A stretch of DNA of 45,231 nucleotides from Actinomycetota bacterium (GTDB lineage: Bacteria; Actinomycetota; Actinomycetes; Actinomycetales; Dermatophilaceae). The DNA is taken from assembly GCA_039934065.1 (NCBI GenBank), contig JBDTMW010000001.1:1-45231 (forward strand). The letters are read 5' to 3'. Under the pieces are notes generated by a model. It saw only the letters and a program-made list of their open reading frames with translations, made no database searches and was not told the origin of the DNA. The number at the start of each line of letters is the position of its first letter. The stretch's first letter is position 1. Positions 528 to 39,155 of the stretch are shown one piece after another. Position numbers and translations under genes: made by a program.

Positions 528-998
528 ATGAGTAGACAGAGCGAGCAGCGTCTCCGTAGGGCTACCAGTCCTAGTCTAGGAGACGGTGTTGTTGCGGGGG
601 CACTGTGTGGGGCGTTCGGAGCTGCCGGTACATGGGCTGTCTCCGGAGGCAACGCCTTGGCCTCGGTGATCGTTGCGGTCGCGACTGGTGGCCTCTTGGT
701 GACGCTTTCTGTACTCACGGGCAGGCAGCTCTGGGTAGAGGGAGACTCGGTGCGCGAGAAGTGGCGCCAGGGACATCAATCCATAGCCCTGTCGGATATT
801 CAACTCATCTGGGTTAACTACTTGCCGCGTGTCGGTTGGCGCCTGAACATTGACGGGGTCCATGGTGAGGCAATCTGCAACGTCGCCGTCGATCGCGGCA
901 CTCAAGAATTTCGCCGGGAGTTGGCGAAGAGGCTTGATGAAGTCGGAAACACGAAGGTCTTCGCCGACGAACGAGCTGCCAAGGCGTTGAAAGAGTGA
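528..998 (+). CDS. Candidate cognate immunity protein: two TM helices plus a ~90-aa soluble (PH-like?) domain
   Basis: The ORF starts 20 nt after the toxin stop (ATG 528 preceded by GGGAGAG; TTG 516 is an alternative). Hydrophobic segments VVAGALCGAFGAAGTWAV and ALASVIVAVATGGLLVTLSVL are followed by a charged domain (WVEGDSVREKWRQGHQSIALSDIQLIWVNY...). The immunity call rests on position immediately after a polymorphic-toxin tip. Confidence 0.55.
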   Translation: MSRQSEQRLRRATSPSLGDGVVAGALCGAFGAAGTWAVSGGNALASVIVAVATGGLLVTLSVLTGRQLWVEGDSVREKWRQGHQSIALSDIQLIWVNYLPRVGWRLNIDGVHGEAICNVAVDRGTQEFRRELAKRLDEVGNTKVFADERAAKALKE

Positions 999-1219
999 CC
1001 AAGCCACAACCGCCTTCAGCCACATGGACCCTGCTCTGCAACTTCCTTACCTCAGAGGGAAATCACGGGCCCTTCACTGGATCAATGACCCTCCTCGGGA
1101 TCGGCGGAGGAGTCATCGGCGCGCTAGTTGGCGCCGCAGCTGGGCCGGCAACGACTACGACCAGGGTGCCCCCAGTTCCGGGAACTCCGCCACCGGTGTC
1201 GGGTACCGACTGCCCATGA
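995..1219 (+). CDS. Hypothetical small membrane protein, or debris of a larger decayed gene
   Basis: GTG 995 overlaps the upstream stop (GTGA). The 74-aa product has one Gly/Ala hydrophobic segment (LLGIGGGVIGALVGAAAG) and a Pro/Thr tail. It is in the same frame as the RHS remnant downstream, separated only by TGA-CGG-TGA (1217-1225). Confidence 0.25.
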   Translation: MTKPQPPSATWTLLCNFLTSEGNHGPFTGSMTLLGIGGGVIGALVGAAAGPATTTTRVPPVPGTPPPVSGTDCP

Positions 1220-1225
1220 CGGTGA

Positions 1226-1543
1226 CCCTCTCGGCGGCCGACCCGAGCACCGGCCCCGACCGACCTCGGTTGGTTCCTGTGTGCGGCCACAATTACGACC
1301 AAGGACATGGACCTCTCCGGGGACATCACCACCGCGGCCAGGTTCGACGACCAGGGGCGCAGCGTGGAGTCCCGCCAGCCCTCGGCCACCGGGACCGACG
1401 CCGGCACCGTCGTCGACCGCTGGAGTCGAGGGTGAACGTGGTGCTCGTCCCGGCCTGGGTAAGCCCTCGGCCAAGCCACGACCACCCGATACGCCGAGTC
1501 CATCGGCGGCGACCTCGGCACCAGGATCAACGGCCCGTCATGA
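1226..1543 (+). pseudogene. Decayed RHS-repeat core fragment (frameshifted, no start)
   Basis: Frame 2 (1226-1435) reads ...ITTKDMDLSGDITTAARFDDQGRSVESRQPSATGTDAGTVVDRW, a typical YD/RHS repeat (xxFDxxGRxxxxxxP), then hits TGA at 1433-1435. Protein-like sequence continues in other frames (..TTTRYAESIGGDLGTRINGPS, stop near 1541). There is no start codon or N-terminal part. Confidence 0.6.
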
Positions 1544-1589
1544 TTAAGCGGGCCGCGGTCCGTTGTCATGTGACGCTCCCCTGCTGGGG

Positions 1590-1611
1590 CCAGTACACAG
1601 CCAGTACACAA
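1590..1611. repeat. Tandem 11-nt direct repeat (ccagtacacag / ccagtacacaa)
   Basis: Two adjacent copies (1590-1600 and 1601-1611), read directly, in the non-coding low-GC stretch left of the tRNA fragment. Confidence 0.9.
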
Positions 1612-1759: not shown

Positions 1760-1824
1760 CTATTTCGAACGCTTTGCGAAGCGACGGCCCGTGGCCGGCC
1801 GGCGACAGTGACGTCCCCGGCCGG

Positions 1825-4800
1825 TCAGTCACTGCAGGACACCGGATCGTCGAAGTGCCCCGGGGTCGTGGGGTACGCCGAGCCAGCAGCGTGCGCGTTG
1901 TCGGCACCGGGGTAGACCATCGCGAGCTCACGGAACGCCGACGTACCCGGGGTCGACGAGTCGGTCGAGCTTCGCCCGGCCGAGCTTCCCCAGGCGAGCT
2001 GCTGCAGGAACGCCTGCATCGCCGGCGAGTGCTGCCGCACGTCGTTGAAGCCGCCGTACGCCGCGTTGCAGTGGGTGTAGAGGTTGTAGGCGCCGTTCCA
2101 GTCGAGCAGCCGGTCGCCGGGGTTGGGTCCGTTGGCAGCCACGTCGCCTTGCAGGATGTCGCGGTCCCAGCCGCCGTAGAGCCAGTCGGTCCCCTGGTGG
2201 TGCTGGTTGTTGACCAACGACGCCGGGTTCGACGTGTCGTCGTACTTGTTCGTCATGACGAACCAGGAGCACGGATCGACGGTCACGAGCGACTTCTTGC
2301 TGCCGGAGGTCACCGGCCAGTCTCCCGTCGCGCAGCCGGAGCCGGGCACGTACGTGCCCCGCGGGTTGAAGTCGAGCAGGTCGCTGCCGAGGACGCCGGC
2401 GAGCGACGCAGCCGACGTCCCACCAGTGCCACCGAAGACGTGGTCGACGAAGCGGTCGTTGGTGCCGCGGGCGGTCGGGTCGAACGTGTTCGTCCCGGTC
2501 AGCATGCAGTCGGAGGTTGCGGCGTCGGCGATTGGGTCGCAGCCCTTGCCGCCCCAGAGCACGTCCGCGCCGTCGTCGCCGAACACCTGGTCGCCGCCGC
2601 TGTCGCCGTTGGCCAGGTCGTCACCGTATCCGGCGTGGATGGAGTCGTTGCCCATGCCGCCGCGGATTCGGTCGTTCCCGCCTTCCGTGATGCCGTCGTG
2701 CGGCATCGCCGCCGAGGTCGAGGTGCCGATCCAGGTGTTGCCGTCGGTGTCGTGACGCAGATCGACGAACCGGGCGTAGGACCCGGTGGCGAAGCCCGTG
2801 TACGACTCCTTGGGCGGACTGTTGGTCGACACGGTGAATGACATGGTGTTGGCGTCCGAGGCGTTGATGTACCTGTCGATCACACCGCCGCGATCGCCGA
2901 GCAGGGCATCCTCGCCCGCGTCCCCGTAGAGGACGTCGTTGCCGAGCTCGCCATAGATGTCGTCGTTGCCGTCCCCACCACGGATGGTGTCGTTGCCGTC
3001 TTGGCCCCAGAGTCCGTCGTTGCCGGCGTCGCCATAGATCACGTCGTCGCCGAAGGTTCCGGTGGGCTCGCACGTGGAGCCGCCGGCTGCGCAGAATCGC
3101 GTGGGCACACCGGTGAAACCGCTCGTGCGGATCGTCGTCGCGTCGGCCGGCAGTGCGCCGCTCGGGTAGCGCTCGGCGTAGACCGCGTCACGCTGGACAC
3201 CGGCGATCGTGGTCACGGTGCGGACCATGCGTCCGTTGTCACCGAGCACCGCGTCGTCGCCACCGTCACCCTCGATCGTGTCGCCCGCGTCGCGGAACGA
3301 CGGGATCGAGGCACCGCCGACGATGTCGTCCTGCCCGTCAAGAGCGGACCCCTCCAGGGTCGAGGCATCCGATGCCGAGCCGGGCCAGGACCCGGACAGG
3401 GGTACGACGGTGGTCTCGGTCGAGACTACTGAGAGTGGTAGGTCGCCGCGGATGACGTCCGCGCCGCCGTCGCCCTCGAGGTAGTCGGCGCCGCCGCCGC
3501 CGCTGATGTAGTCGGTCTTGTCCTGGCCGAAGACCAGGTCGTTGCCCGAACCCCCGGACAGCTGGTCCGAGCCGCTGCGGTCTTCGGGAGGGGCGGTGAG
3601 GTAGCTCCCACCGTTGCGCAGGTCGAAGAGCTGGATCTGTCGCGGCGTCATGAGTCCCGCCGCACCCATGCGAAGGGTCACCCGTGACGGAGTGCCGGTG
3701 CGCAGGATCGCGCCGTTGTCGCCGAGCACGACATCGTCGCCGGGGCCGCCCCAGATCGCGTCGTCGGTGTCGGCCTGGCCGCCGGCTGTGTCGGTGCCCG
3801 CCGTACCGGAGAGCGGGGTGGTCGACCCGCCGACGAGGTCGTCGTCGCCGAGGTCGCCCTCGACCCAGTCGCTTCCCTGGTCGCCCTCGACGGCGTCGTC
3901 CCCGGCGTCGCCCTTGAGCCGGTCGTCCCCGCCCTGTCCGTAGATGACGTCGTTGCCACCGCCGCCGCTGATGTCGTCGGCCCCCGAGGTTCCGGCTGTG
4001 GGTGTGAGGCCGAGGTCGAGCAGGGTGACGTCGTAGCCCGAGGCGAAGCCGCGCCCGAGCGTCACCGGGGTGCCAGTGCCGGCAGCGACCGCGGTGAGGA
4101 CGGCGTTGTCCCCCGTGATCAGGTCGTTGCCGTCGCCACCGCTGATGACGTCGTCGGAGTCGGGGCGTCCCACACCGTCCGATGCCGACTCGGTGCTGCC
4201 GCCGACAAGTCGGTCCTCGCCGGCATCGCCGTTGATCCGGTCGGCGCCGTTGTTGCCCTCGAACCAGTCGTTCCCGGCCCCGCCGTACATGGTGTCGGCG
4301 TCCAGGCCGCCGAAGGCCCGGTCGTTGCCGTCGCCCCCGTAGATCAGGTCCCGCGCCCCATAGCTGGCGATGCCGCTGCCGAGGTCGTATGCCGAAGGCT
4401 CAGTCAGCCCGCCGACGACACCGATCCCGTTGTCGCCGATGAGAGTGTCGTCCCCGGCGTCGCCGAACAGGGTGTCTCCCAGCGCTGGCGTCGGGACCGG
4501 TCCGACGTCCTGCCGTGCAGGGGCGCGGGTGCCACCGACGACGAGGTCGTCGCCGGTGCCGCCGAACTCGGTGTCGGCGCCGTCGTTGCCTTCGAGCACG
4601 TCGGTGCCGTCGCCACCGTAGAGGACGTCCTGGCCATCGTTGCCGTAGACGTGGTCATCGCCGTTGTCACCGGTGATGACGTCGTCGCTGGTTCCGCCGT
4701 ACCCGACGTCGTTGCCGTCGCCCAGGTAGAGGTGGTCGCTGCCCATCTGTCCGCACACGAGGTCGTTGCCGCCGCTGGCGTAGACGGTGTCGTCGCCCGC

Positions 4801-7800
4801 ACCGGCAGCCACGACGTCGATGCCTGAGCCGCCGATGATCAGGTCGTTGCCCGGTGAACCGGTCGAGGCCTCGGACGGCGGGTCGGACTGCGGGTCCGAG
4901 ACGGGTACGGTGCAGGGCGACTCGTGTCGGTCGCCGAAGATGTCGGCGCCGCCGTTGCCACCGTAGATGCGGTCAGCGTCGTCGCCGCCCACGAGGAGCT
5001 TGTGCGACGGGTCCGTGCCGACGGGCAGCGGTAGGAGGGTCGGGACTCCGCCGTCGACCTGGGACGGCTCGGCGAGGACGAGGTCCTGGCCGGATCCGCC
5101 GAAGACCTGGTCTTGCCCGTAGCCGCCCGCGAGTATGTCGTCGTTCGCCCCGCCGTAGATCGTGTCGACCTGGTCGGGCTTGGAGTGGCCAGCCACGTTG
5201 TCGCGCCCGAGAGCTCCGTAGACGGTGTCGTTCCCGGTGCCGGTGTCGATCGTGTTCACGTCACCCGAGGAGTCACCCGTACCCGGGCCGTCCTCGGCGG
5301 TGGCCGTCTCGTCGCCGGCGTAGAGCGTGTCGTTGCCCGAGCCTGCCGAGATGTGGTCGCTGCCGCCACCGCCGACGACGGTCACCGAGCGCGAGGAGTA
5401 CGCCGGATCCGGTGTCGACGCGCCGAGCGGGTTGTCGGACGCGACGCCGATGGCGTCGTTGCCGGCACCGCCGTACACGATGTCGTGACCGAGCCCGACG
5501 GCGATCGTGTCGTCGCCGTCGCTGCCGGGGTTGTCGGCGGTCGAGCCCATGGCCGGTCCGGTGGCGAACGGTGTGGTCCAGTCGAACACCGTGGTGGGCC
5601 CGGAGAGGGTCTTGCCGGCCCAGGTGAGCGAGGAGTCCCCGGAGACCCGGTCGTCCCCACCGCCGGTGGTGATCTGGTCGTTGCCAGGTCCGCCGGCGAC
5701 CACGACGGAGGGTGGGCTGTCACCGGCCGGCATGCCGATCGGCCGGATGTCGCCGGTGGTGATCTGGTCGTTGCCGGGTCCGCCGTCGACATAGGAGCGG
5801 CCCTGCCCGGTGCGGATCACGTCGGGACCGTTGCCGCCGAACACGACGACGTCCTTGTCGAACGGGGACGAGGCGACGTTCGACTTGTCGGACCCGTCGG
5901 TCTTGGTCGTGTCGCCGTCACCCTGGAACGTGAGCGCCAGCGCGCCGGGAAAACCGTGCCCGTCGACGAGGACCCTGTCGACGGTGACGCCGGTGCGGGT
6001 GCTGAACTCCTGGCGGTCACCTGCAGCGGCGACCGAGAAGCCGATGAAGGGATGGGCGTCGGTCGTCCAGTCGTGCAGCTCGGTGACCACGACCTTGTCG
6101 ACCACGTCGCCGGACCCACCGAGGTTGTACGCAGGGTCGCCGCGCAGGTTGCCGCCGCCGCCACCCGCCACGGTCGCCGTCGCGAGTCGTCCGGCATGCA
6201 CGATGAGCACGCCGTTCTGGTCCTCGCCGAGCACCGGTGGTGGGGGGGTGCAGTCGGGGGTCGCGCTGAAGTCGAGCAGGGTGATGTTCGCGAGGTTGAG
6301 GTCGAAGGACACCGAGAACGGCGAGATGCCGACGGTGACATAGAGCTTGAGGTAGAGCCCGAGCCGGCCGCTCACGGTGAACAGGCAGATCGGGTTGTTG
6401 AGGGCCGCGTCGGTGAACTCGCCGAAACGGAACTTGCCGTCGTTGGTCGGGTCGTTCCAGCTGAATCCGACCGTGAGGGTGATGCCACCCTCGATGCCGA
6501 CCGTGAGGATCAGCACGCTGACCTGAGCGCCGGCGCCGATGCTGCCGCTGAACTGCAGCACCTGCAGCGGGGTGCCGTCATCGTTCTTCGTCCCGAGGTA
6601 GAGGCTGTCCAGGATGCCGATGTCGACCTTGCCGCTCTCCACGGCCTTGCGGATCCCGTAGGTGTCGAACCCCGCCTTGATGTGCGCAGTCACGCTGGCC
6701 GATCCCGAGATGGTGACGAGCACCGGCGGCGGCGCGTAGACCGGGCCGAAGGCCTGACTGTAGGAGAACGCCAGCGTGAGCGGCCCGGAGTCGAACGTCA
6801 CGAGGTCGACGTCCTGGCCCATGATCAGGCCGAACGCCTTCTTCGGGTCCTCGAGGAGCGGGAACTTGAAGCCGGCCTTGTCGCCCTGGCTGCCGGCTCC
6901 GGTCACGATGTTCTTCGAACCGGAGTCCGACTTGGCGTTGACTTCGGTCGCGGCGTTGACGTTCGGCGTGGAATTGTCGATGAGTGAGGGGGCCGCATCC
7001 GGCGTGTTCTGCGTCGAGAGCGCCTCGGGGCCGAGGACGTCGAAGTGACCGAGATCGATCGTCCCGTTTCCGGACAGCGTCTTGTTGGCCAGGGTGACCG
7101 CCGCCAGGACGCGGTCGACGAACGTCAGGTCCGGACCGCCCGCGAGCGAGCTGTAGGCCTTGGCGATGCTCACGAGCGTGACATCGGGCCCTCCGACCAT
7201 GTGGCTGAGGTCGCTGAGCACCGGGATCGGGGCGTACAACGTGTCGATGATGGGCTGCAGCGGCCCGGTGATGCTCTTGACCTCCTTGAAGATCGGTCCG
7301 AGCGTCTTGTCGAGGAAGGGGCCGACCTCGAGGTAGAGGTGCGGGAAGGTGATGATCAGGCCGGTGGTCTTCGAGGGTGCGTCGCCGACGGCGAACGCCC
7401 AGTCGAGGATGAACTGCCCGGAGATTCCGGGGAGCGTCGGGTCGATGCCCGCGTCGAAGTCCCAGTTGATGTGGATGCCGCCGTAGAGCCCGACGTTCAC
7501 GTGGTCGGTGAGGTCGGCGAGCTCGGCGAGGTTGATGACCTTGGTGTTGTCGGTCGCGCATGCGAGGTCGGCGGCGACCCAGGTCCAGCAGGTCGTGTCG
7601 CCGGTCGACTTGAGGTCGACGCCGAACGTTCCGCCGAACAGGACGTCGCTGTCGACCCCGCTGTGGTTCTTGATGTTGGCCTGCAGGAACGCCACGCGCG
7701 CCTTTAGCTGACCGGGCAGCTTGAGGCTGACGCCGACCTGGAGCTCGGGGACTGGCCGGGCGCCGTCCTTGGTGTAGATGACGAAGCCGTCGTCCTTGTT

Positions 7801-10800
7801 CAGGCCGAACTTCAGGTGGATCCGGTAGCCGAGCTCGACCTTGACCTGGCGGTCGGCGGGGTTGTCGCCGTTGGCCGAGAACGACAGTCCGGGGATGCCG
7901 ATGTCAAGCGGCACGGACGCGAGGGTGGTGCAGTTCGTGGCGCAGCCGCCAGCCGGTGCCGGTGCGAACGTGACGGCGGAGTTGCTCAGGATGTCGACGG
8001 CGAAGTCGACGCCGGTGATGTCCTCGGACGGCACGTCGTCGGTGCACCCGGTGACGGTGACGGTGACCGACGTGGTCGTGTAGCCCGCAACCAGCACATT
8101 GGCCGGGACGGAGTCCTTGTCGTCATAGAACGTCGTCGCGTTGCCGGTCAGTACGGCCAGCTCGTCCCAACCGGTTCCGTTCCTCCGCATGACGCGGTAG
8201 TCGGTGGCGCCGACGACCTTGTCCCACGTGAGGTGGTTGTAGTCGGTCGAGGTCAGCGTCGCAGCCCCGGTTTCGGTCACGACCGGGTCTGAGATCGCGG
8301 TGTCGGTACCGCTCTGGCTCGCGACGACGGCGTACTCGTAATGCGTGGTGCCCGCGGTCCCCTCGTTCGTCACCGCCAGGTTGGTCGCCTTATCCAGGAC
8401 CAGGCTGCAGTGCGCTCTGACCGTCACGGGGTAGCCGAGGGCGTTGGTGAGAGTGGTGCTGCCCCAGGCGTTGAGCGTGCTGATCGAGTCGATGCCGCCC
8501 GCACTGCCCAGGGCCGTCTGGAACTTGCCCCGGACGTCGCCGATGAAGTTGGCGCCCTTCTGCACGTCGTCGCCGACGAGCGGGAGCTTGCCGTTGGCGC
8601 TGGCCAGACGCAGGCCGGACTCGAGCATGGCGAGATAGCGGTCGATGCCGTCGCCCATCGACCCGAAGTCGAGGATCGCGCTGGCGATCTTGCTGGCGAG
8701 GTTGCTCGGGATCTCCAGCCGGTCGGCGCCGTCGACCAGCGCCCCGCCGAGGTCGAACAGGCCGGAGAGGGTGCTCGTACGCGGCAGGCGGACGTTGATC
8801 GAGTAGACGGTCGGGTCGATCTTTGTCCAGCCGCCGCCGGAGCTGACGTAGATCGGCAGGTGCGCGCACAGAGCCATTCCGGCCTGCTCGACGCCGGTGC
8901 CGCACGTGACTGGGTCCGAGGTGGTGTCCATCGTGGCGGTGAGGCCGCCGACGAACGTGTCGAGACCGACGGGCGAGGCACCGGACGAGGCGAGGGTCGC
9001 GCCGTAGTTCGCGTGTGCCTGGGCCTTGTCGGTCGTGCTCGGGTCGCCCAGGGAGATCGCGAGCGGACCGACGTTCGCGCCGACGGTGAAGCTGGCGGCA
9101 TCCGCCTTCACCTCGACGGTCACCGACGACTTGGTGGGGTCGGGGTCGACCTTGAGGTCGGCCGGGGATGCCGGCCCGCTCCCGGCCGCGAGGGGCAGCA
9201 GGAGCCGCACCTTGGCCTCGCCGGTGACGGAGACGGCCACCGTGCCGTCGACCTGGGCGCCGACGACGTCCTTGGGGATGCCGGCCTTGGCGAGGTCGAG
9301 CGTCACCGCGGTCTGGGTCTTCTCGGTGTGCTTCCAGTCGACGTCGAGCACGATCTTCGCGGGTGAGCCGGCTGCGTAGCCGAGGGTGACGGGGCTGCCC
9401 GCACCGAGAGCGCCTTGCAGTGCGGCGATCATCGCCTGCAGGCTGTCGGGCGGGTTGGCGGCGAGCCGGTCGAGCGCGTCGGAGAGCGCGCTGCGGAAGG
9501 TGTACGGCGTGCCGTCGGCCGGCTTGTTCGGCCCGAACCCGGGGGTCAGCGAGAGCGTGTGGTCCGTGTGCGACGTCACGACGCCGACGTACGTGCCGAC
9601 GACGACCGCGCGACCGCACCACGTGTCGACGTGGCCCGCCGTGCAGCTCGCGCTGCCGAAGGACTGGTCGGTGTCGGTGAGAGCGTCGGTGCCGTAGGTG
9701 GTTTGCTTGCCGTCGGACGACGACGCGGTGCCGATCAGGTCGCGCAGGTTCTTGCCGACGACGGGGATCTTGGTGCCGAGCATCGACTCCGTCGCGCCGC
9801 TCGCGTGCAGCCCCTCGAGCTGGGTGTCGACGAGGCGAAGCGCCTTGAGCAGCTGACCGAACAGCTGCGTGGGGTTGTCCGGGTTGAAGTCGAACGCCTT
9901 GACCGGGTCGAAGCCCGAGACGACCGGCGAGACGACGGAGGGCTTGCGCAGGTCGTCCATCGACAGCGTGGCGCTCATCGCCGGGAAGTCGCCTCCGCCC
10001 GCGCCCGGAACCGTCGCCGAGAGCGAGGCATAGGCGCGCGCGTTGACGTCGCCGTCGAGCAACTGGGTGGGGTCGTGGGCGAGCAGCGCGAACACCTGGT
10101 CCAGCGGGAGGTCACCCTTGTCCTTGAGACTGAGGGTGACCATGTCCGTCGGGTCGCCCGCCCCGGCGCAGTCGGTCCCCGTGATGGAGCGTGAGCACAT
10201 CCGCAGATCGCCGGTGAGGTGCACGAGCAGGTAGCCGACCGTCACGTCCATGGAGACGGTCGTCGAGGCCCTGAAGCCCGCCGAGAGCAGCGGAACGCCG
10301 GTGCCCGTGTGGAGCAGGATGCGGTCGACGTTCGCCGGCTGCTCGCTGATCACGGTCGTCGAGCCGTCGAGGTTCTTGCGCTTGTACGGGCAGGCCGTCG
10401 ACGGGTCGGCCGGATCCTTGAGCGCGTCGGCTGCGGGGTTGCAGCCCGCTCCGGTCTTCGGGTCCTGAAGGTCGAGGGCCACGGTCAGTTGCGCGTCGTA
10501 CGCCGGCCGCACGGTGGCCGTCGCGGTGGCTGCGTTCGCCTGTGCGACGCCGGCACCCTTGAGCCAGTCCCCGAACTGCGCCCGCCCGGTCAGCGGGTCG
10601 GCGGCGCGCACGACGTACGCGTCGTGGGGCTGCGGGAGCGGGGGCGGACCGCTCCAGGGTCCGGTGAGAGTGATCTTGGTCGCGGTGTTCGACTTCACGG
10701 TGCCCTTGCTCGTGCCGACGACGACCTCGCGGCCCTGGAACGCGTTGGGCGCGAAGGACTGCGCGGTATCCAGCAGCGTGTCCGGACCGTAGGTGATCGT

Positions 10801-24632: not shown

Positions 24633-25277
24633 TCAATGCCCCGCGGTGGGCGGATGGGTGACGGCAAAGACGGCAGCCTGCGTCCTTCGCTCCATGCCGA
24701 GCTTGCCCAGAACCGCCGTGATGTAGTTCTTCACGGTCTTCTCGGCCAACGACATCGCCTCGCCGATCTGGCGGTTGGTGAGACCCTGGGCCACGTGATC
24801 CAGGATCCTTCGCTCCTGCGGGGAGAGCAGCCGCAGCCGAGGGTCGGTGTCCGCGTTGTTGCTCCACGCCTGCCGGACACGCTTCACCGTTTCGGCGTCG
24901 ATCAGCTGTTCGCCGGCGGCCACCGCGCGGATGGCTTCGATCAGACCATTTCCCTTGATGTCCTTGAGCAGGTACCCGGCGGCTCCGGCCAGGATCGCCG
25001 TGGCGAGGGCCCGCTCATCGTCATACGAGGTGAGGATCAACCCTGCGATCGAGGGATCCATGGAACGTACGTCGCGGCATACGTCGAGGCCCGACCCGTC
25101 CGGCAGCCTGGCGTCGAAGATCGCCACGTCCGGGCGTAGTGCCGGGATCCGCCGGGCCGCCTCGACCGCGGAGCCGGACTCACCGACAACCTCGAAGTCC
25201 GTCACCGTCTCAAGCAGCTCACGTAGCCCGCGCCGCACGATCTCATGATCGTCGAGGAGGAATATGCGGATCGTCAT
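24633..25277 (-). CDS. dosR: NarL/LuxR-family response regulator, DosR/DevR type
   Basis: MTIRIFLLDDHEIVRRGLRELLE...RPDVAIFDARLPDGSG...ILTSY...AGAAGYLLKDIKG...LSPQERRILDHVAQGLTNRQIGEAMSLAEKTVKNYITAVLGKLGMERRTQAAVFA. This is colinear with M. tuberculosis DevR as I recall it, including the C-terminal KLGMERRTQAAVFA. Confidence 0.85.
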   Translation of the reverse strand: MTIRIFLLDDHEIVRRGLRELLETVTDFEVVGESGSAVEAARRIPALRPDVAIFDARLPDGSGLDVCRDVRSMDPSIAGLILTSYDDERALATAILAGAAGYLLKDIKGNGLIEAIRAVAAGEQLIDAETVKRVRQAWSNNADTDPRLRLLSPQERRILDHVAQGLTNRQIGEAMSLAEKTVKNYITAVLGKLGMERRTQAAVFAVTHPPTAGH

Positions 25278-25387
25278 CTGGTCGCCCTTCCGGTTCCTGG
25301 TCCCACCACGGTACCGGTCTGGACCCCGCCATCACGCCTGTCATCGAGATCCCTGCGGTCTGGGCGCCTGACATCTGGCCCTCCTCG

Positions 25388-26311
25388 TCACGATCGTCTG
25401 GGATGGCCAGCCAACGCCGATGGGATCGCACGGGATACATCCACGCCCGGTTGCACGACCAACACGTCGCAGGTCAGCTTGTCGAGCACCGCCCTGCTGA
25501 CAGAGCCGACGACCAGACCTGCGAGACGCCCCCGACCATGGGTCCCGACGACGAGCAGGTCGGTTGGCCCGACCCTGTGCAACAGGGCAGACGCCGGGTC
25601 ATCCTGGGTGATCACCAGGCGGTTGGGGACGCCGACCGGAAGGCGGGCCACCCTCACCGCCTCGCGACACCTGCGCCAGCACTCGCCGATCGCCGCACGA
25701 TCGGCATCCTTGCCCCGCGGCAGGGCGTGCACCACGACCAGAGGGAGGCCTCTGATGGCGGCCTCAGCCACCGCGACCGCGAGGACCGCGTCGGGGGCGC
25801 CATCGCTGTCCATCCCGACGACGACCGCAGAGCCGGGCCCGAACCGTCGCCTCTGGCTCGGTCTGCCCTGATCATGCACGACGAGCATCGGGCACTTGAA
25901 CCGTCGCCCGAGCTCCGCGCTGGTAGATCCCAGGGAGAAGGTCGCCTGGCCTCCGTCACCCCTGCGTCCTAGCACCAGCAACCCGGTTCGACGAGCCAGC
26001 CGGTCCAGCTCAATCGAATCGGCCTCCTGAACAACGGCGGTTTGCACGGCAACAGACCGATCCGTCTCGAGAGCACGTTCCATTGCGCGCTCAGTCGCTG
26101 CCTTTGCCTGGTGGGTCGACTCAGCCTCAGCGCGGGCCACCCAGGCGAGGTTGTCCGGCCAGTAAGGCCGATGTTCGGCCACGGCGAGCAACACCAGAGC
26201 GACACCTCGTCGGGAAGCCTCACGCGTCGCGGCAATGACCGCGTGCTGGCTCTCCCAAGAACTGTCACAGCCCGCCACAACGGTTTCGGTGAGTCGGGAA
26301 GACGCGCACAT
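25388..26311 (-). CDS. Tandem universal stress protein (two USP domains)
   Basis: Two USP repeats, each ending in the nucleotide-binding motif (LLVLGRRGDGG..LGSTSAEL..CPMLVV and LLVVGTHGRGRLAGLVVGSVSRAVL..CDVLVV). Confidence 0.88.
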   Translation of the reverse strand: MCASSRLTETVVAGCDSSWESQHAVIAATREASRRGVALVLLAVAEHRPYWPDNLAWVARAEAESTHQAKAATERAMERALETDRSVAVQTAVVQEADSIELDRLARRTGLLVLGRRGDGGQATFSLGSTSAELGRRFKCPMLVVHDQGRPSQRRRFGPGSAVVVGMDSDGAPDAVLAVAVAEAAIRGLPLVVVHALPRGKDADRAAIGECWRRCREAVRVARLPVGVPNRLVITQDDPASALLHRVGPTDLLVVGTHGRGRLAGLVVGSVSRAVLDKLTCDVLVVQPGVDVSRAIPSALAGHPRRS

Positions 26312-26398
26312 ATGCCCTACCTCGCCTCGGATACGCAGCCAGATATGACTGACGACCCTGTCCCCTTCAGGATCGCCGACCGAGCCTCACGGGCCCTA

Positions 26399-26412
26399 GG
26401 GTCCTTGGTCCC
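26399..26412. promoter_or_regulatory. Dos-box-like palindrome GGGTC-cttg-GTCCC
   Basis: 9 of 10 core positions match GGGAC-N4-GTCCC. It lies in the divergent USP/ppdK intergenic region, ~90 nt upstream of the USP start (26311). Confidence 0.5.
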
Positions 26413-26440
26413 CCTTTTGCGAGCAAGCCCGCACGGCATC

Positions 26441-26454
26441 GGGACCATGGTCAC
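26441..26454. promoter_or_regulatory. Dos-box-like palindrome GGGAC-catg-GTCAC
   Basis: 9 of 10 core match. Its centre is 42 bp (four helical turns) from the 26399 box and ~140 nt upstream of ppdK ATG 26591. Confidence 0.5.
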
Positions 26455-26590
26455 TCCCCCTTGACCAAGAATCCAGCCAGCATTGGGTCTGTCAGCTAGC
26501 CCAACCGCCCCCGACCCAGAACCAGTCAGACCGCACATCGCATCCAAACCGCTCCAAGCCCGAGAAACCAGGATCGTCCGGGAGGACCAC

Positions 26591-29374
<2,784 letters not shown>

Positions 29375-29472
29375 GGGCGCGAGGGGTGTCGTCGGAGTGC
29401 GTGGGAGGGGCTGCGTCCGCCGACGCTCGAGCCTCGTGAGACCTCCGGCATCTCCAAGGGAACCCGACGGTC

Positions 29473-30072
29473 TCAGGCGTCTGGGTCCTGCGACGTGACG
29501 CGGCGAACGCCGAGGATGGCCTGCGCGATCGCGGTCGCCGCAGCCACCTCACGGTCTGAGGCCGTCCCGGTGATGTGAACCACCCTGTCGGCAACATCTG
29601 CATGCCAGGAATGCTGACCGATCTGCGCGAACGCCTTGGACACCTCTTCCGCGATGTCGCTGTCGGGCCGCGCCATCGTCCTGATCACGTCACTCCGGCT
29701 GACGACGCCCAAGAGCACGTCACCCCGCACCACCGGCATGCACTTCCAGCTCGTGGCGGCGAACGTCTGAGCCAGCTCCGCAACGTCGGTGTCCTCCCGG
29801 ACCGTGTGCGGACGCGCCGTCATCACCTGACCCACGGTCGTCAGCAGAGGGTCCGAGTCTGGAAGGACGGGACGCATGTGCGCCCGCGGGTCCGGCGCCA
29901 GGTGTTCGCGGAGCAGATCGGCCTCGCTGATGATGCCGACCAGACGCCCGCTACTGTCCACGACCGGGAGACTGGTCACTCGGGCGGTCACCAACGTCTG
30001 CAGCGCCTCCTCAAGGGAGGCGCTCTCATCCACCTTGTGTGCCGGGCTGGTCATGATTTCGCGAACGAGCAT
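29473..30072 (-). CDS. CBS-pair protein with a C-terminal BON-like segment (Hrp1-like hypoxic response protein)
   Basis: MLVREIMTSPAHKV...SLPVVDSSGRLVGIISEADLL...VGQVMTARPHTV...CMPVVRGDVLLGVVSRSDVI gives two CBS motifs. A ~60-aa tail follows (HITGTASDREVAAATAIAQAILGVRRV). GGAG lies 8 nt before ATG 30072 (ATG 30078 also possible). Confidence 0.85.
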   Translation of the reverse strand: MLVREIMTSPAHKVDESASLEEALQTLVTARVTSLPVVDSSGRLVGIISEADLLREHLAPDPRAHMRPVLPDSDPLLTTVGQVMTARPHTVREDTDVAELAQTFAATSWKCMPVVRGDVLLGVVSRSDVIRTMARPDSDIAEEVSKAFAQIGQHSWHADVADRVVHITGTASDREVAAATAIAQAILGVRRVTSQDPDA

Positions 30073-30139
30073 CTCCATAACTCCTTTCAGACGCACTGCA
30101 TGGTGAGGCCACCATGCCCATCGAACCTCGTCGGGACCA

Positions 30140-30153
30140 GAGACGAACGTCCC
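30140..30153. promoter_or_regulatory. Dos-box-like palindrome GAGAC-gaac-GTCCC
   Basis: 9 of 10 core match, ~70 nt upstream of the CBS gene start and abutting the kinase stop codon (30157). Confidence 0.45.
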
Positions 30154-30156
30154 CGA

Positions 30157-31917
<1,761 letters not shown>

Positions 31918-32451
31918 CTAGGGTGTGTCCGATCGATCGGAGTCCTCCAGGACACGGTCGCCGGCGAGCACGCTGTATGCCGGTCCGGCGTCACCCGGTG
32001 ACGCCGGCTGCGTGTCTTCAGGACCGGAGACGGTCAGAACGTCACACCCTGCGTGTTCCTGGCAGTACTGACCCACGCGCACAGGGGCATCCGGCGCATC
32101 GCGCCCCACCACGAGGACAGCAGCACCGCGGCTGCGCTCGACCAGCGTCTGCGCTGCTTCACCCTCCACGGTCTCGAACGTGCAGGGAACGCGCCGCTGC
32201 CTGTGCAGGGCCCGCAGGGCGACGCCGAACATCGCCACATCCATCTCTGCTCGCTCCTCAGAGCTCAGGCCGACGGGCAACACCTGGACAAAGCGCACGC
32301 GAGCTGCCCTATGAACGGCCTCGCGGACAGCGGCGCCGGCGACGAGTGGCGCCATGTCGTCATTCACCAGACCGGCCACCACGTCACGGGGCCGGTACGG
32401 CGACGTGGTGCCCCCAGCTCCGGTGTTGGTGGGTGCCTGCATGAAAACCAT
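31918..32451 (-). CDS. Degenerate USP-like protein without the ATP-binding motif
   Basis: The stop lies 9 nt upstream of the kinase start, so it is operonic. It has USP-like beta-alpha topology (..RVRFVQVLP.., ..AAVLVVGRDAPDAP..VGQYCQEHAGCDVLTV). The G-x2-G-x9-G[S/T] motif is replaced. The start is ATG 32451 or 32442. Confidence 0.6.
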   Translation of the reverse strand: MVFMQAPTNTGAGGTTSPYRPRDVVAGLVNDDMAPLVAGAAVREAVHRAARVRFVQVLPVGLSSEERAEMDVAMFGVALRALHRQRRVPCTFETVEGEAAQTLVERSRGAAVLVVGRDAPDAPVRVGQYCQEHAGCDVLTVSGPEDTQPASPGDAGPAYSVLAGDRVLEDSDRSDTP

Positions 32452-32478
32452 CGTGCGACCCGGCTAGCGGGATCGGCA

Positions 32479-32492
32479 GGGGCAAAGGTCCC
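32479..32492. promoter_or_regulatory. Dos-box-like palindrome GGGGC-aaag-GTCCC
   Basis: 9 of 10 core match in the 150-bp divergent region between the USP-like/dosS operon and the tandem USP gene. Confidence 0.5.
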
Positions 32493-32522
32493 GAGACAAT
32501 GGCGAGCTCGATGCCAGCGCAC

Positions 32523-32536
32523 GGGACCAAGTGCCC
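32523..32536. promoter_or_regulatory. Weaker Dos-box-like site GGGAC-caag-TGCCC
   Basis: 8 of 10 core match, with its centre 44 bp from the 32479 box, in the same divergent region. Confidence 0.3.
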
Positions 32537-32602
32537 TGTCCCTGCGCGGCTGAGGTGACCAGTGTTGGTAGTAGTGAGAAGCAGACGCCCAAGGAGAACG
32601 AC

Positions 32603-33565
32603 ATGGACATCACACCCGCTCCCCGAGGTGCCGTCGTCGTCGGCGTCGATGGCTCGTCAACCAGTGACCTGGCCCTGGACTGGGCGGTCGAGGAGGCCAC
32701 CCGGCGGAATCTGCCGCTGCACATCATCCACGCCTTCTCCTTCGGGTATCCGAAGACGAGGAGCGGGTTTGGGCACTCAGTCGATGACCTGCGCCAGATA
32801 GCCCACAGAGTCCGCAAGGACGCAACGGCGCGCGCACAGCGTGCCAACCCAGAGCTGGCCATCACCTGGCACGAGTCGGCATACGGTCCGGCACCCACTT
32901 TGGTGCAGGCCTCGAAAACGGCGGCAACGGTCGTCGTGGGCGCCCGCGGCCTGAGCGCTGTGCAGGGTGTGCTCGTGGGGTCCGTGTCGCTCCAGGTGGC
33001 GACGCATGCCCACTGCCCTGTTGTCGTCGTCCATGACAAGCCGGCACCCGCTCCCGATGCCCCTGTCGTTGTTGGTGTTGACGGTTCGGCGGTGTCCATG
33101 AGTGCGATCGCCTACGCATACGAGCAGGCGGCTTCACGCGGTGTCGGCCTGACCGTCGTCCACGCCTGGTGGCTGGAGTACGTCGAAAGCACCGCAGCCT
33201 CGGCCATCTGGACGGTTGACTGGCAGCAGTTCGCCGAGGAAGAGCAGATTCTGGTTTCAGAGTCGCTGGCCGGGTGGCAGGAGAAGTTCCCCGACGTCGC
33301 CATGCGTCGACACAGCGTTCGCGGACTCCCGGTAGAGGCGCTGGTTCGTCAGAGTGAGAACGCCTGTCTGGTCGTCGTGGGCACTCGCGGCCGTGGCGGG
33401 TTCAAGGGCCTCCTCCTGGGCTCGGTGAGCCAGGGTGTCATGCACCGGGCTCACTGCCCCGTGGCGATCGTGCACGCCCCCAGAGGGCCCGAGGACGACA
33501 GGGAGGACAAGTCCGGAAGCGCCCCTCATGGGCTCCCCGTGCCGCCGGTGCGAGAGCAGACCTGA
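32603..33565 (+). CDS. Tandem universal stress protein
   Basis: AAGGAG lies 6 nt before ATG 32603. There are two USP domains (VVVGVDGSSTSDLALDWAVEEA..., ..VVVGARGLSAVQGVLVGSVSLQVATHAHCPVVVV; VVVGVDGSAVS..., ..LVVVGTRGRGGFKGLLLGSVSQGVMHRAHCPVAIV). Confidence 0.9.
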   Translation: MDITPAPRGAVVVGVDGSSTSDLALDWAVEEATRRNLPLHIIHAFSFGYPKTRSGFGHSVDDLRQIAHRVRKDATARAQRANPELAITWHESAYGPAPTLVQASKTAATVVVGARGLSAVQGVLVGSVSLQVATHAHCPVVVVHDKPAPAPDAPVVVGVDGSAVSMSAIAYAYEQAASRGVGLTVVHAWWLEYVESTAASAIWTVDWQQFAEEEQILVSESLAGWQEKFPDVAMRRHSVRGLPVEALVRQSENACLVVVGTRGRGGFKGLLLGSVSQGVMHRAHCPVAIVHAPRGPEDDREDKSGSAPHGLPVPPVREQT

Positions 33566-37970: not shown

Positions 37971-39155
37971 TTAGTCGAGGGAGATCTTCACCACCTCGCC
38001 CGTTGGACCACCACCGTTGTTGGCGGGCATGATGCTCCAGTTGGAGACGTATACCGCGTCGTCGTGGTACGCGAATCCCGAGGGGAAGGACAGCTTGCCG
38101 GCGCCGAGCGTGGTGCGGTGGCCGTTCGGGGCCACCTTGATGACATCGCCGCTGGGGTCGTCTCCGAACATTCCATTGGCCTGGAACTCGGTGGCATAGA
38201 AGTTACCCTCGTGGTCGAACCCGCAGCCCTGTATGCCGGTGAAGCCGGTCCACTTGACCGTCGCCGTGCCGTCAGCGATGCGCCACACCCGCGCATTTCC
38301 TGCCGCATAGTGGCCGCCGAGGAGTTCACCTACGTAGAGGGAGCCGTCGGGTGCCTTCGCGACGCAGGTGGGGACCGAGTCTGTCTCGGAACCGTCGGGG
38401 ACCTGGAGGTAGGCCAGTGTCGAGACGCGTCCGCGGTTGTCGACCTTGGCAATGAGGTTAGCGCCGGCGTCGGCCACGTATTGGGTCCGGCCGCTGGTCG
38501 CGATGCCGTTGGGGTTTGCGTCCGGGAACTGGTCAGGCTGCAGGTTCTTGTGGTCGTTGGTCCACGCGTAGTCGGTGTCCCCGGTGCTCGCCAGCACGCT
38601 CCACGAGCCGTCGCCGTTGATGGCGATTGTCCGACCCAGCTGAGCCCTGGCGGCGTCGACGACAGGTCCCGGGGGTGCCTCTGGCGGGATGCCGGCGCTG
38701 CTGGCCGACATCTGACCGTAGATGCGGTGGCCCTGGGTGGAGACCGCGGCGAGACCCCCAGCGGCGGTCCCGTCCGGCGACGCCACCGAGATCAGGTGGT
38801 CGACGACCTTGGTCTGCTTGCCGTGTGAGAGCTTGGTCATGCCGCTGGTCAGCCCGGCGCACGCGGGCCCTTCCGGCCCGTCGCCCAGGCAGACGTCCCC
38901 GCCGTGACCCGCTTCGGCGATGTAGAGGTCGCCGTGCGGGCCGAAGGCCAAGCCTCGAGGGTTGTCGAGGCCTACGGCGACGACAGTCACGGTCCCTTCG
39001 TTGTCGGCTCTCGTCTGGTCGGCATGGACCGGGCTGGCAGCCAGGAGGCTGCCGGCCGCGAAGAGGCCGATGGCAGCGGAGGCGCTCGTGGTGCGACTGC
39101 GCAACGTCACAGCGCGGCTCGTGAAGGTCATGCGGCGACTGGTCCTGGGTTTCAT
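37971..39155 (-). CDS. Secreted ScyD/ScyE-family beta-propeller protein
   Basis: N-terminal signal (..SRRMTFTSR...ASAAIGLFAAGSLLAASPVHA/DQ). NHL/propeller-like blades follow (GLDNPRGLAFGPHGDLYIAEAG, NPNGIATSG..YVADAG, PDGSLYVGEL, GNFYATEF, FPSGFAYHDDAVYVSNWS). GGAG lies 7 nt upstream of ATG 39155. Confidence 0.75.
   Translation of the reverse strand: MKPRTSRRMTFTSRAVTLRSRTTSASAAIGLFAAGSLLAASPVHADQTRADNEGTVTVVAVGLDNPRGLAFGPHGDLYIAEAGHGGDVCLGDGPEGPACAGLTSGMTKLSHGKQTKVVDHLISVASPDGTAAGGLAAVSTQGHRIYGQMSASSAGIPPEAPPGPVVDAARAQLGRTIAINGDGSWSVLASTGDTDYAWTNDHKNLQPDQFPDANPNGIATSGRTQYVADAGANLIAKVDNRGRVSTLAYLQVPDGSETDSVPTCVAKAPDGSLYVGELLGGHYAAGNARVWRIADGTATVKWTGFTGIQGCGFDHEGNFYATEFQANGMFGDDPSGDVIKVAPNGHRTTLGAGKLSFPSGFAYHDDAVYVSNWSIMPANNGGGPTGEVVKISLD

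Follow-up and report, generated by a model that had tools for sequence, protein, structure and literature searches.

A conserved actinobacterial family of giant RTX proteins with Sec-type signals and unclassified N-terminal modules of predicted beta hairpins

We analysed a stretch of 45,231 nucleotides from an actinobacterial contig (JBDTMW010000001.1; hereafter the window), whose minus strand carries a 10.4-kb gene for a giant RTX protein. An earlier reading of this DNA from its letters and open reading frames (ORFs), which we call the sequence-only reading, had given the position and description of the gene correctly. It is a minus-strand ORF (1825-12186) for 3,453 residues. The gene starts with an ATG at 12186 and ends with a stop codon at 1825-1827. 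The frame between stops is slightly larger (1825-12306, or 1825-12291 from the first possible start); this first start, a GTG at 12291, would lengthen the protein by 35 residues. We preferred the ATG because it yields a signal peptide and agrees with the starts of the homologues. The mature protein has a computed mass of ~347 kDa and an isoelectric point of 4.2. Its close homologues all come from Actinomycetota, a gene for a DinB/mycothiol-S-transferase is found close by and the G+C content of the window is 64-71%, in line with the Gram-positive-type genome already proposed. The G+C content at third codon positions (GC3) of the gene is 0.91, the highest in the window, where the other scored ORFs range from 0.70 to 0.85. 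This could reflect high expression or merely the Gly/Asp/Ala-rich composition of the protein. The features of the protein and of its surroundings are collected in Table 1.

A long and repetitive gene on an apparently metagenomic contig, a few of whose orthologues are annotated as two adjacent ORFs, might be an assembly artefact or a decaying pseudogene, and the sequence-only reading had itself raised the former. Against this, the frame stays open over 10.4 kb with its high GC3, and co-linear orthologues of the same length are found in complete genomes of several genera. Furthermore, the repeats within the gene are degenerate 27-nt units, only 60-82% identical, with the sole exception of one isolated 40-nt pair at 95% identity (5661/5751), which makes an artefact of collapsed repeats unlikely. 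The open frame, the orthologues and the repeat identities effectively refute this explanation, and we give it a negligible probability.

The C-terminal third of the protein is a typical RTX array. The only Pfam family matching the protein, PF00353, does so in 16 stretches with 226 bits, against a gathering cut-off of 23 (E = 2e-68), and thus the tandem GGxGxDxUx nonapeptides place it among RTX proteins. NCBIfam gave sub-threshold RTX-type families only. The strict GxxGxDxU pattern occurs 46 times over ~1,155 residues, close to the ~1,100 estimated before. The positions of the RTX blocks align one-to-one across homologues, and their closest solved relatives in a search of PDB sequences are the RTX blocks of CyaA (7usl, E = 1.6e-28). 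The array is followed by a non-repeat domain of ~180 residues, whose tail is near-invariant in the orthologues that we fetched. A sequence search of the PDB revealed no relative of this domain, and in a collection of 5.8 billion proteins it matched almost only fragments of the same family (136 clusters, mostly from short metagenomic contigs). One cysteine pair (3373/3451) pins the invariant tail to the domain, which suggests that the tail is structural. We propose that the C-terminal domain caps the last beta-roll; it is not a sorting signal.

The other end of the protein carries the export signal. In the N-terminus, MARSWKRIVIYSTVSAMMASGVTVAVAPSAAAAQA/PD, a basic n-region is followed by a hydrophobic core and an AXA motif, and there is neither a twin-arginine motif nor a lipobox. 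The same test, a set of simple rules on the n-region, the hydrophobic core and AXA, is passed by 24 of the 28 full-length annotated homologues, and the homologues derived from genomic loci likewise begin with signal-like N-termini. Export by the twin-arginine route was considered and judged unlikely, given that the protein has no RR motif and that RR is only sporadic in the homologues. Covalent anchoring by sortase also finds no trace in the protein, from its LPXTG-type motif to the hydrophobic segment and basic tail. The sole match to L[PA]xT[GAN] in the whole sequence is LAVTN at residue 1270, the protein ends in ...PGHFDDPVSCSD with no C-terminal hydrophobic stretch, and hydropathy along the whole protein indicates no transmembrane-capable stretch besides the signal peptide. 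Pfam searches of 30 further ORFs across the window, which reaches 1.8 kb downstream of the gene, identified no HlyD-family, TolC-family, ABC-exporter or sortase gene and no wall-binding domain. The sequence-only reading was therefore right that the protein has a canonical Sec-type signal (AQA/PD) and no LPXTG, and that no type I secretion system (T1SS) is encoded nearby, at least in the 45-kb window. It overstated the oddity of an RTX protein lacking a T1SS in a Gram-positive bacterium: the survey by Linhartova et al. in 2010 already reported RTX genes in six genomes of Actinobacteria, none with T1SS homologues (PMC3034196). The three entries retrieved from its tables are small proteins of 265-868 residues (PMC3034196).

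RTX arrays are nevertheless a hallmark of T1SS substrates (PMC3034196), and the protein might be an ordinary one, whose ATP-binding cassette (ABC) transporter and membrane fusion protein (MFP) are encoded elsewhere and whose N-terminal signal is unused. Its distant relatives in Verrucomicrobiota, in which the RTX block is short and C-terminal and the N-terminus is not of the Sec type, do resemble T1SS cargo, and just 1.8 kb can be seen downstream of the gene. Yet substrates of these systems carry a C-terminal signal and no N-terminal signal peptide, whereas here a canonical cleavable signal is kept in most homologues (24/28) and the C-terminus is a conserved, cysteine-pinned folded domain with an invariant tail, unlike the loosely conserved T1SS signals. 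The 26 cysteines in conserved pairs also speak against this route. Dedicated ABC and MFP genes, which usually adjoin the genes of T1SS substrates, were neither found in the window nor conserved near the orthologues, and no such pair adjoins any orthologue examined. The 2010 survey points the same way with its RTX-bearing Actinobacteria devoid of T1SS homologues (PMC3034196). We thus regard type I secretion as very improbable.

The cysteines provide indications on the location of the protein. Nine pairs recur in 96 or more out of 100 homologues: 1095/1107, 1260/1381, 1415(/1419), 1934/1979, 2425/2478, 3032/3039, 3216/3227, 3285/3306 and 3373/3451. Three of these (2425/2478, 3032/3039, 3216/3227) are within the RTX region. 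The less conserved cysteines are gained or lost as pairs: 582/599 is found in 73 of the 100 homologues, 1533/1543 in 72, and 664/673 in 48. Since cysteines are conserved, gained and lost pairwise, we infer that the conserved pairs form extracellular disulfides, and hence that the protein is extracytoplasmic.

Pfam matched nothing in the N-terminal ~2,000 residues: searches with the whole protein, and with seven overlapping segments of it down to E ≤ 10, found only PF00353 and left the first ~2,100 residues unmatched. When we searched the N-terminal regions of 18 diverse homologues at E ≤ 0.01 there was no match either, and in particular no Big, cadherin or Ig domain. The profile of the N-terminal family, searched against all PDB sequences, matched only one unit resembling FN3, which is variable or missing in some homologues. 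We built AlphaFold2 (AF2) models on family alignments for residues 36-1235 (pLDDT 81.4, pTM 0.56) and 1380-2110 (pLDDT 74.6, pTM 0.60). The sheets in both models have unusually long strands, of 16-25 residues, which are arranged in hairpins and interrupted by helical segments. Foldseek searches of both models against the PDB, and of the core described below against BFVD, produced no real neighbour (TM-scores ≤0.13, mostly with low probability). The matches to pore-state gasdermin, MACPF, outer-membrane barrels, SprA, MTP, lipovitellin and ApoB were discarded as generic similarity between long hairpins or large beta-sheets. The sequence-only reading fared well in this region. A single FN3-like unit was all that it had recognised there among adhesin repeat families, a view with which Pfam, the PDB profile and Foldseek agree, and the region does not resolve into cadherin, Big or other adhesin domains. 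Of the long beta-rich segments that it pointed out, the one that it quoted, GFKFPLLEDPKKAFG..., is present at around residues 1772-1814.

We searched for internal repeats by comparing slices of the 100-sequence family alignment with each other as hidden Markov models (hhalign). By these matches (Table 1), a long-hairpin beta module recurs about five times, in divergent form, along the N-terminal 2,000 residues. Two of these make up, together with a helical insert, a module of ~560 residues that we call the core. This is the best-conserved stretch of the N-terminal part, with 58-71% column identity, and conservation along the protein peaks at residues 1651-1700, 1801-2000 and in the last 150 residues. 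The helical insert of the core carries the near-invariant TGPLQPxxDTLYAPIPVLSDLS, its second beta module (module 5) carries FDSGPL, FGPVYAPPPV and WNDPxxDGKFR, and the core ends with PDCxPPPP. It is unusually hydrophobic (grand average of hydropathy, GRAVY, of +0.22) and includes the most hydrophobic 19-mer of the protein outside the signal peptide; the hydropathy of one of its hairpins, VSVLILTVGIEGGITLTVG, is as high as that of the signal peptide. No sequence in the PDB matched the core.

We then assessed the distribution of the family. A first protein search resulted in 28 other clusters, all 3,067-3,652 residues long except one fragment of 2,174 residues, and most of them co-linear with the window protein. 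They came from Kribbella, Nocardioides, Marmoricola, Microtetraspora, Sphaerisporangium and metagenomes, and the closest one is a forest-soil sequence with 67% identity. A scan of one genome per GTDB species gave 194 stretches encoding the core, of which we fetched 80 loci. Nearly all of these have a single ORF of 3,200-3,650 residues with ~30-50 RTX motifs. In total, co-linear orthologues of 3,067-3,765 residues (median 3,503) are present in at least 80 species genomes of Actinobacteria, including Lentzea, Saccharothrix, Actinokineospora, Kribbella, Micromonospora, Hamadaea, Catellatospora, Terrabacter, Intrasporangium, Humibacillus, Nakamurella and Jatrophihabitans. In all the named genera the full-length proteins are 39-50% identical to the window protein, a range that spans Pseudonocardiaceae, Kribbella, Micromonospora, Intrasporangiaceae and genera of Streptosporangiaceae. 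The nearest neighbour of a sequence belongs to the same genus in 58 cases out of 65, which fits a mainly vertical descent of the family. Two orthologues of the P0158 cluster are annotated as pairs of adjacent ORFs, in Actinosynnema sp. ALI-1.44 (2,717+784 residues) and in Saccharothrix mutabilis subsp. capreolus (509+2,997 residues), as a result of either a frameshift or a sequencing error. Fragments of the family recur in environmental metagenomes, including those of soil. We found no paper on the giant family or on its core module, and both the family and its N-terminal modules appear to be undescribed. What is new here is a conserved orthologous family of 3,400-residue proteins, of which ~2,000 residues are unclassified, internally repeated long-hairpin modules, together with a core that extends well beyond the family.

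Indeed, an exhaustive phmmer search with the core (residues 1425-1990) against 1.84 billion representative sequences matched 1,605 proteins at E ≤ 1e-3, of which 367 reached E ≤ 1e-30. Giants of 3,000-5,300 residues are frequent among them, with the core at various positions; in some examples it is directly ahead of RTX repeats and accompanied by Calx-beta, SdrD_B, FG-GAP or MAM domains. Several are from Verrucomicrobiota, where they are named 'LEPR-XLL domain-containing protein' at NCBI and have LEPRxLL-type N-termini. Such a motif opens several of the core-bearing giants found outside Actinomycetota (P0213, P0029, P0237 and P0264), the first of which has 5,294 residues and two copies of the core. 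In some relatives the homology reaches back to around residue 900 of the query and thus covers the preceding beta module and a helical linker. The N-terminal profile also matched a Calx-beta/RTX protein of Jatrophihabitans, a partial protein of Candidatus Accumulibacter and a metagenomic protein of 3,162 residues in which the core (residues 187-727) precedes PKD, cadherin-like and virginiamycin-lyase/NHL domains. By these matches, the core is a widespread unannotated module, often found together with RTX repeats, and the actinobacterial proteins are its putative Sec-signal branch. The two groups of giants share the core, sometimes the whole of residues ~900-1990, and RTX repeats that follow the core in the RTX-bearing members examined. 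They differ in their N-termini (LEPRxLL-type in Verrucomicrobiota, a Sec signal in the window protein), in the place and number of cores and in their accessory domains, and the actinobacterial C-terminal domain had no BLASTP match in the nine relatives checked. The contrast in N-termini suggests that diderm and monoderm bacteria use different routes to export one and the same module.

We interpret the gene as a member of a large uncharacterised superfamily of giant RTX exoproteins, in which the actinobacterial proteins are the Sec-dependent branch, and its product as a calcium-folded, disulfide-stabilised extracellular protein with a structural or adhesive role. We hold this composite reading with moderate confidence; its role as a structural or adhesive protein is inferred, and so are the Sec route, the disulfides and the calcium-gated folding, as is the earlier idea of a calcium-rigidified surface fibre or S-layer-like protein. 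In this scenario, the classical signal peptide would target the 3,453-residue precursor to SecYEG, through which it would pass unfolded and N-terminus first, with cleavage after AQA (residue 35). RTX repeats are disordered at the calcium concentrations of the cytoplasm and fold into beta-rolls when they bind extracellular calcium (PMC9120197, PMC10511787, PMC8486122), and such folding is an accepted principle for RTX proteins (PMC8486122, PMC3034196). The RTX third of the protein (~1,150 residues) would thus be disordered inside the cell, which might help a very long chain to remain export-competent. Outside, calcium binding would turn it into ~11 beta-rolls, and the disulfide-pinned C-terminal domain would close the array. 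In CyaA, the RTX region folds by templating from block to block, in dependence on a capping structure at the C-terminus (PMC9120197, PMC10511787, PMC8486122). Export by Sec would bring the cap out last, opposite to type I secretion, and for this reason the conserved linkers between RTX blocks may serve as local caps. The N-terminal ~2,000 residues would form about five elongated modules of 16-25-residue hairpins, with helical linkers, two inserts and the FN3-like unit, and ~9-13 disulfides would stabilise the whole. The product would be a very acidic extracellular protein of ~347 kDa that lacks a covalent anchor and is either held non-covalently at the surface or in the matrix, or released.

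Several points weigh against this interpretation. No experiment in the literature that we searched bears on the family. The signal peptide was called with a set of rules, and no anchoring domain was found in the protein, so that retention at the surface and release are both compatible with it. In T1SS the C-terminus exits first and nucleates folding; Sec reverses the order, and the CyaA model is therefore not simply transferable. A purely structural role does not require the hydrophobicity of the core. Finally, the family has a fixed length, no near-identical tandem extenders and a high conservation, in contrast to fast-evolving adhesins. Since constant length and high conservation are unlike those of ordinary adhesins, two other roles have to be kept in play.

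The first is that of an envelope protein forming a lattice or sheath, similar to surface-layer (S-layer) proteins such as the RTX-containing RsaA, which would self-assemble on the wall via calcium bridges. RTX-containing S-layer proteins exist in Caulobacter and cyanobacteria. The window protein is very acidic, is predicted to bind calcium and has no covalent anchor, and its fixed length and strong conservation suit a defined assembly better than a variable adhesin. Its GC3 might indicate high expression, or simply its composition. Other observations make this role unlikely: Pfam reveals no SLH or other wall-binding domain, ~3,400 residues is several times the size of known S-layer subunits, and the distribution looks patchy, with 194 species genomes matched. 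To our knowledge, no S-layers have been reported for the genera bearing orthologues.

The second is that of a secreted toxin, or of an effector interacting with membranes or lipids, in which the beta-hairpin core inserts or binds and the RTX array is the calcium-dependent folding or targeting part, as in RTX cytolysins. In favour of it, the core is both the most conserved and the most hydrophobic part, and a mobile module associated with varied C-terminal domains in other giants. The sole structural matches, weak ones, were to pore-state gasdermin and MACPF, outer-membrane barrels and the lipid-binding sheets of MTP, lipovitellin and ApoB. However, all of these have TM-scores ≤0.13, mostly at low probability, and reflect long hairpins in general; the models thus resemble none of the beta-barrel pore-forming folds (aerolysin, haemolysin/leukocidin, MACPF/CDC, gasdermin). 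There is no acyltransferase (RtxC-like), immunity or delivery gene conserved beside the gene, nor an amphipathic-helical hydrophobic domain of the RTX cytolysin type in the protein, and the fivefold recurrence of hairpin modules of the same type is a better fit to a structural repeat. We consider this role distinctly unlikely. A bolder version, which we regard as a long shot, is that the core and the beta module upstream of it are a new machine engaging membranes or lipids, a calcium-gated array of hairpins that inserts into membranes or bridges them. If true, it would be a Sec-dependent counterpart of the RTX cytolysins, or a new class of bridge-like conduit for lipids or surfaces, present in monoderm soil bacteria and common to the giants of the PVC group.

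The structural or adhesive reading can be set against the known RTX proteins. Like CyaA and other T1SS exoproteins, the window protein has tandem GGxGxDxUx nonapeptides in several blocks split by linkers, and a non-repeat segment after the last block, the place of the capping structure in CyaA (PMC9120197). It differs in having a cleavable N-terminal Sec-type signal instead of a C-terminal T1SS signal, ~11 blocks over 1,150 residues instead of the five of CyaA, predicted disulfide pairs inside the RTX region, an invariant C-terminal tail and no T1SS genes nearby. It also lacks the acylation, hydrophobic-helical and enzymatic domains of toxins. The giant RTX adhesins of Gram-negative bacteria (LapA, MpIBP, FrhA, SiiE/BapA) are very large, acidic, calcium-dependent extracellular proteins with a C-terminal beta-roll region, features that the window protein shares or is predicted to share, and a fibrous shape and a part in surface contact are plausible for both. 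In these adhesins a retention module occupies the N-terminus, the extenders are tandem BIg-like domains, often near-identical and of varying number, and there is a ligand-binding region as well as a beta-roll of 120-450 residues with a T1SS signal (bioRxiv 10.1101/2025.09.30.679566). In the window protein, residues 1-370 have no Pfam or NCBIfam match and consist of the signal peptide and then a helical head; there are no Ig-like Foldseek neighbours of the models and no near-identical DNA repeats in the gene; and ~1,155 residues of RTX repeats are followed by the conserved 180-residue domain. The family also departs from these adhesins in its fixed length and its Sec-type signal. The three small RTX proteins retrieved from the 2010 survey (Salinispora Sare_0017, Kineococcus Krad_3615, Streptomyces SGR_2957) are from other high-G+C Gram-positives, whose genomes lack T1SS homologues. 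At 265-868 residues they contrast with an orthologous family of 3,450-residue proteins with ~2,000 residues of unannotated N-terminal modules and a C-terminal domain of its own.

With export by Sec, the family would join RTX arrays of the largest kind to the general secretion pathway of monoderm bacteria. The repeats would then emerge from the cell in the opposite order, a natural test of whether calcium-driven folding of beta-rolls needs export with the C-terminus first. It also exposes ~2,000 residues per protein of confidently predicted, unclassified beta-hairpin architecture, and a core with 1,605 representative matches for which there is no Pfam model, no relative in the PDB and no paper that we could find. 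A 347-kDa protein kept at 39-50% identity and constant length over several actinobacterial orders likely does something basic at the cell surface of soil genera, among which common ones such as Kribbella, Micromonospora, Lentzea and Terrabacter have orthologues.

Table 1. Features of the giant RTX protein, its internal repeats and the dormancy-type gene cluster of the window
Feature	Residues	Window position	Strand	Remarks
Whole coding sequence		1825..12186	-	3,453 aa + stop
Signal peptide	1-35	12082..12186	-	K/R-containing n-region, hydrophobic core, AQA/PD cleavage motif
N-terminal region	36-1227	8506..12081	-	short helical head and three long-hairpin beta modules
Beta modules 1-3	~105-313, 562-745, 933-1135		-	AF2 model, hhalign
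Helical linkers with hP[LFV]hG motif	~64, 359, 808, 1200			between beta modules
Two related small beta inserts	423-529, 762-900			AF2 model, hhalign
FN3-like unit	~1270-1365	8092..8379	-	PDB 3mpc 'Fn3-like protein', E = 4e-4
Conserved core module	1425-1990	6217..7914	-	beta module 4, helical insert, beta module 5
Small beta domain	1991-2110	5857..6216	-	between proline linker and first RTX block; AF2 strands at model residues 608-709
RTX region	2117-3271	2374..5838	-	46 strict nonapeptides, ~11 blocks, conserved linkers between
Conserved C-terminal domain	3272-3453	1828..2373	-	tail [YF]PxTPGHF[DE]..C.., Cys pairs 3285/3306 and 3373/3451
Internal repeat	423-529 ~ 762-900			hhalign probability 97.9%
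Internal repeat	152-244 ~ 1820-1923			hhalign probability 95%
Internal repeat	159-300 ~ 1445-1596			hhalign probability 89%
Internal repeat	196-321 ~ 636-765			hhalign probability 78%
Internal repeat	126-234 ~ 940-1068			hhalign probability 63%
LuxR-type response regulator		24633-25277	-	dormancy-type cluster
Universal stress protein		25388-26311	-	dormancy-type cluster
Pyruvate phosphate dikinase		26483-29374	+	dormancy-type cluster
CBS+BON protein		29473-30096	-	dormancy-type cluster
GAF-GAF-HisKA_3 sensor kinase		30157-31908	-	dormancy-type cluster
Universal stress protein		32531-33565	+	dormancy-type cluster

The giant gene is a stand-alone unit. Its neighbours in the window are ordinary chromosomal genes, encoding DUF2254 and DUF4352 proteins, an enolase-superfamily enzyme, the DinB/mycothiol-S-transferase-like protein, ApbE, an FMN-binding protein, a ferric-reductase-like protein, two-component systems, universal stress proteins and pyruvate phosphate dikinase. 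No neighbour is common to any two of the four annotated orthologue loci (Kribbella, Nocardioides, Microtetraspora and Nocardioidaceae), the contig of the closest homologue and the window, and all-against-all clustering of the ORFs of 85 loci revealed nothing conserved beyond the genus level. The top clusters of neighbours in this analysis were antisense shadow ORFs inside the giant gene, which we rejected as partner genes. Scans for promoters and terminators around the gene gave nothing meaningful. The 1.1-kb gap upstream of it (12187-13298) holds only an ORF of 125 residues with one transmembrane-like stretch (12696-13073, plus strand). This divergent ORF is unrelated to the one of 154 residues found, also divergent, upstream of the Kribbella orthologue, and within the gap we found no Rfam match and no promoter-like site.

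Three other parts of the window were noted in passing. An ORF of 394 residues (37971-39155, minus strand; GC3 0.85) has a match to NHL repeats; NHL/virginiamycin-lyase-like repeats also form the end of P0032, a distant giant bearing the core, probably by coincidence. Between 18018 and 22703, minus-strand genes for ApbE, an FMN-binding protein and a ferric-reductase-like/NAD-binding membrane protein lie beside plus-strand genes for an OmpR-type response regulator and a histidine kinase, and may constitute an extracytoplasmic flavoprotein or redox module. Finally, the region 24633-33565 contains a dormancy-type (DosR/DevS-like) gene cluster.

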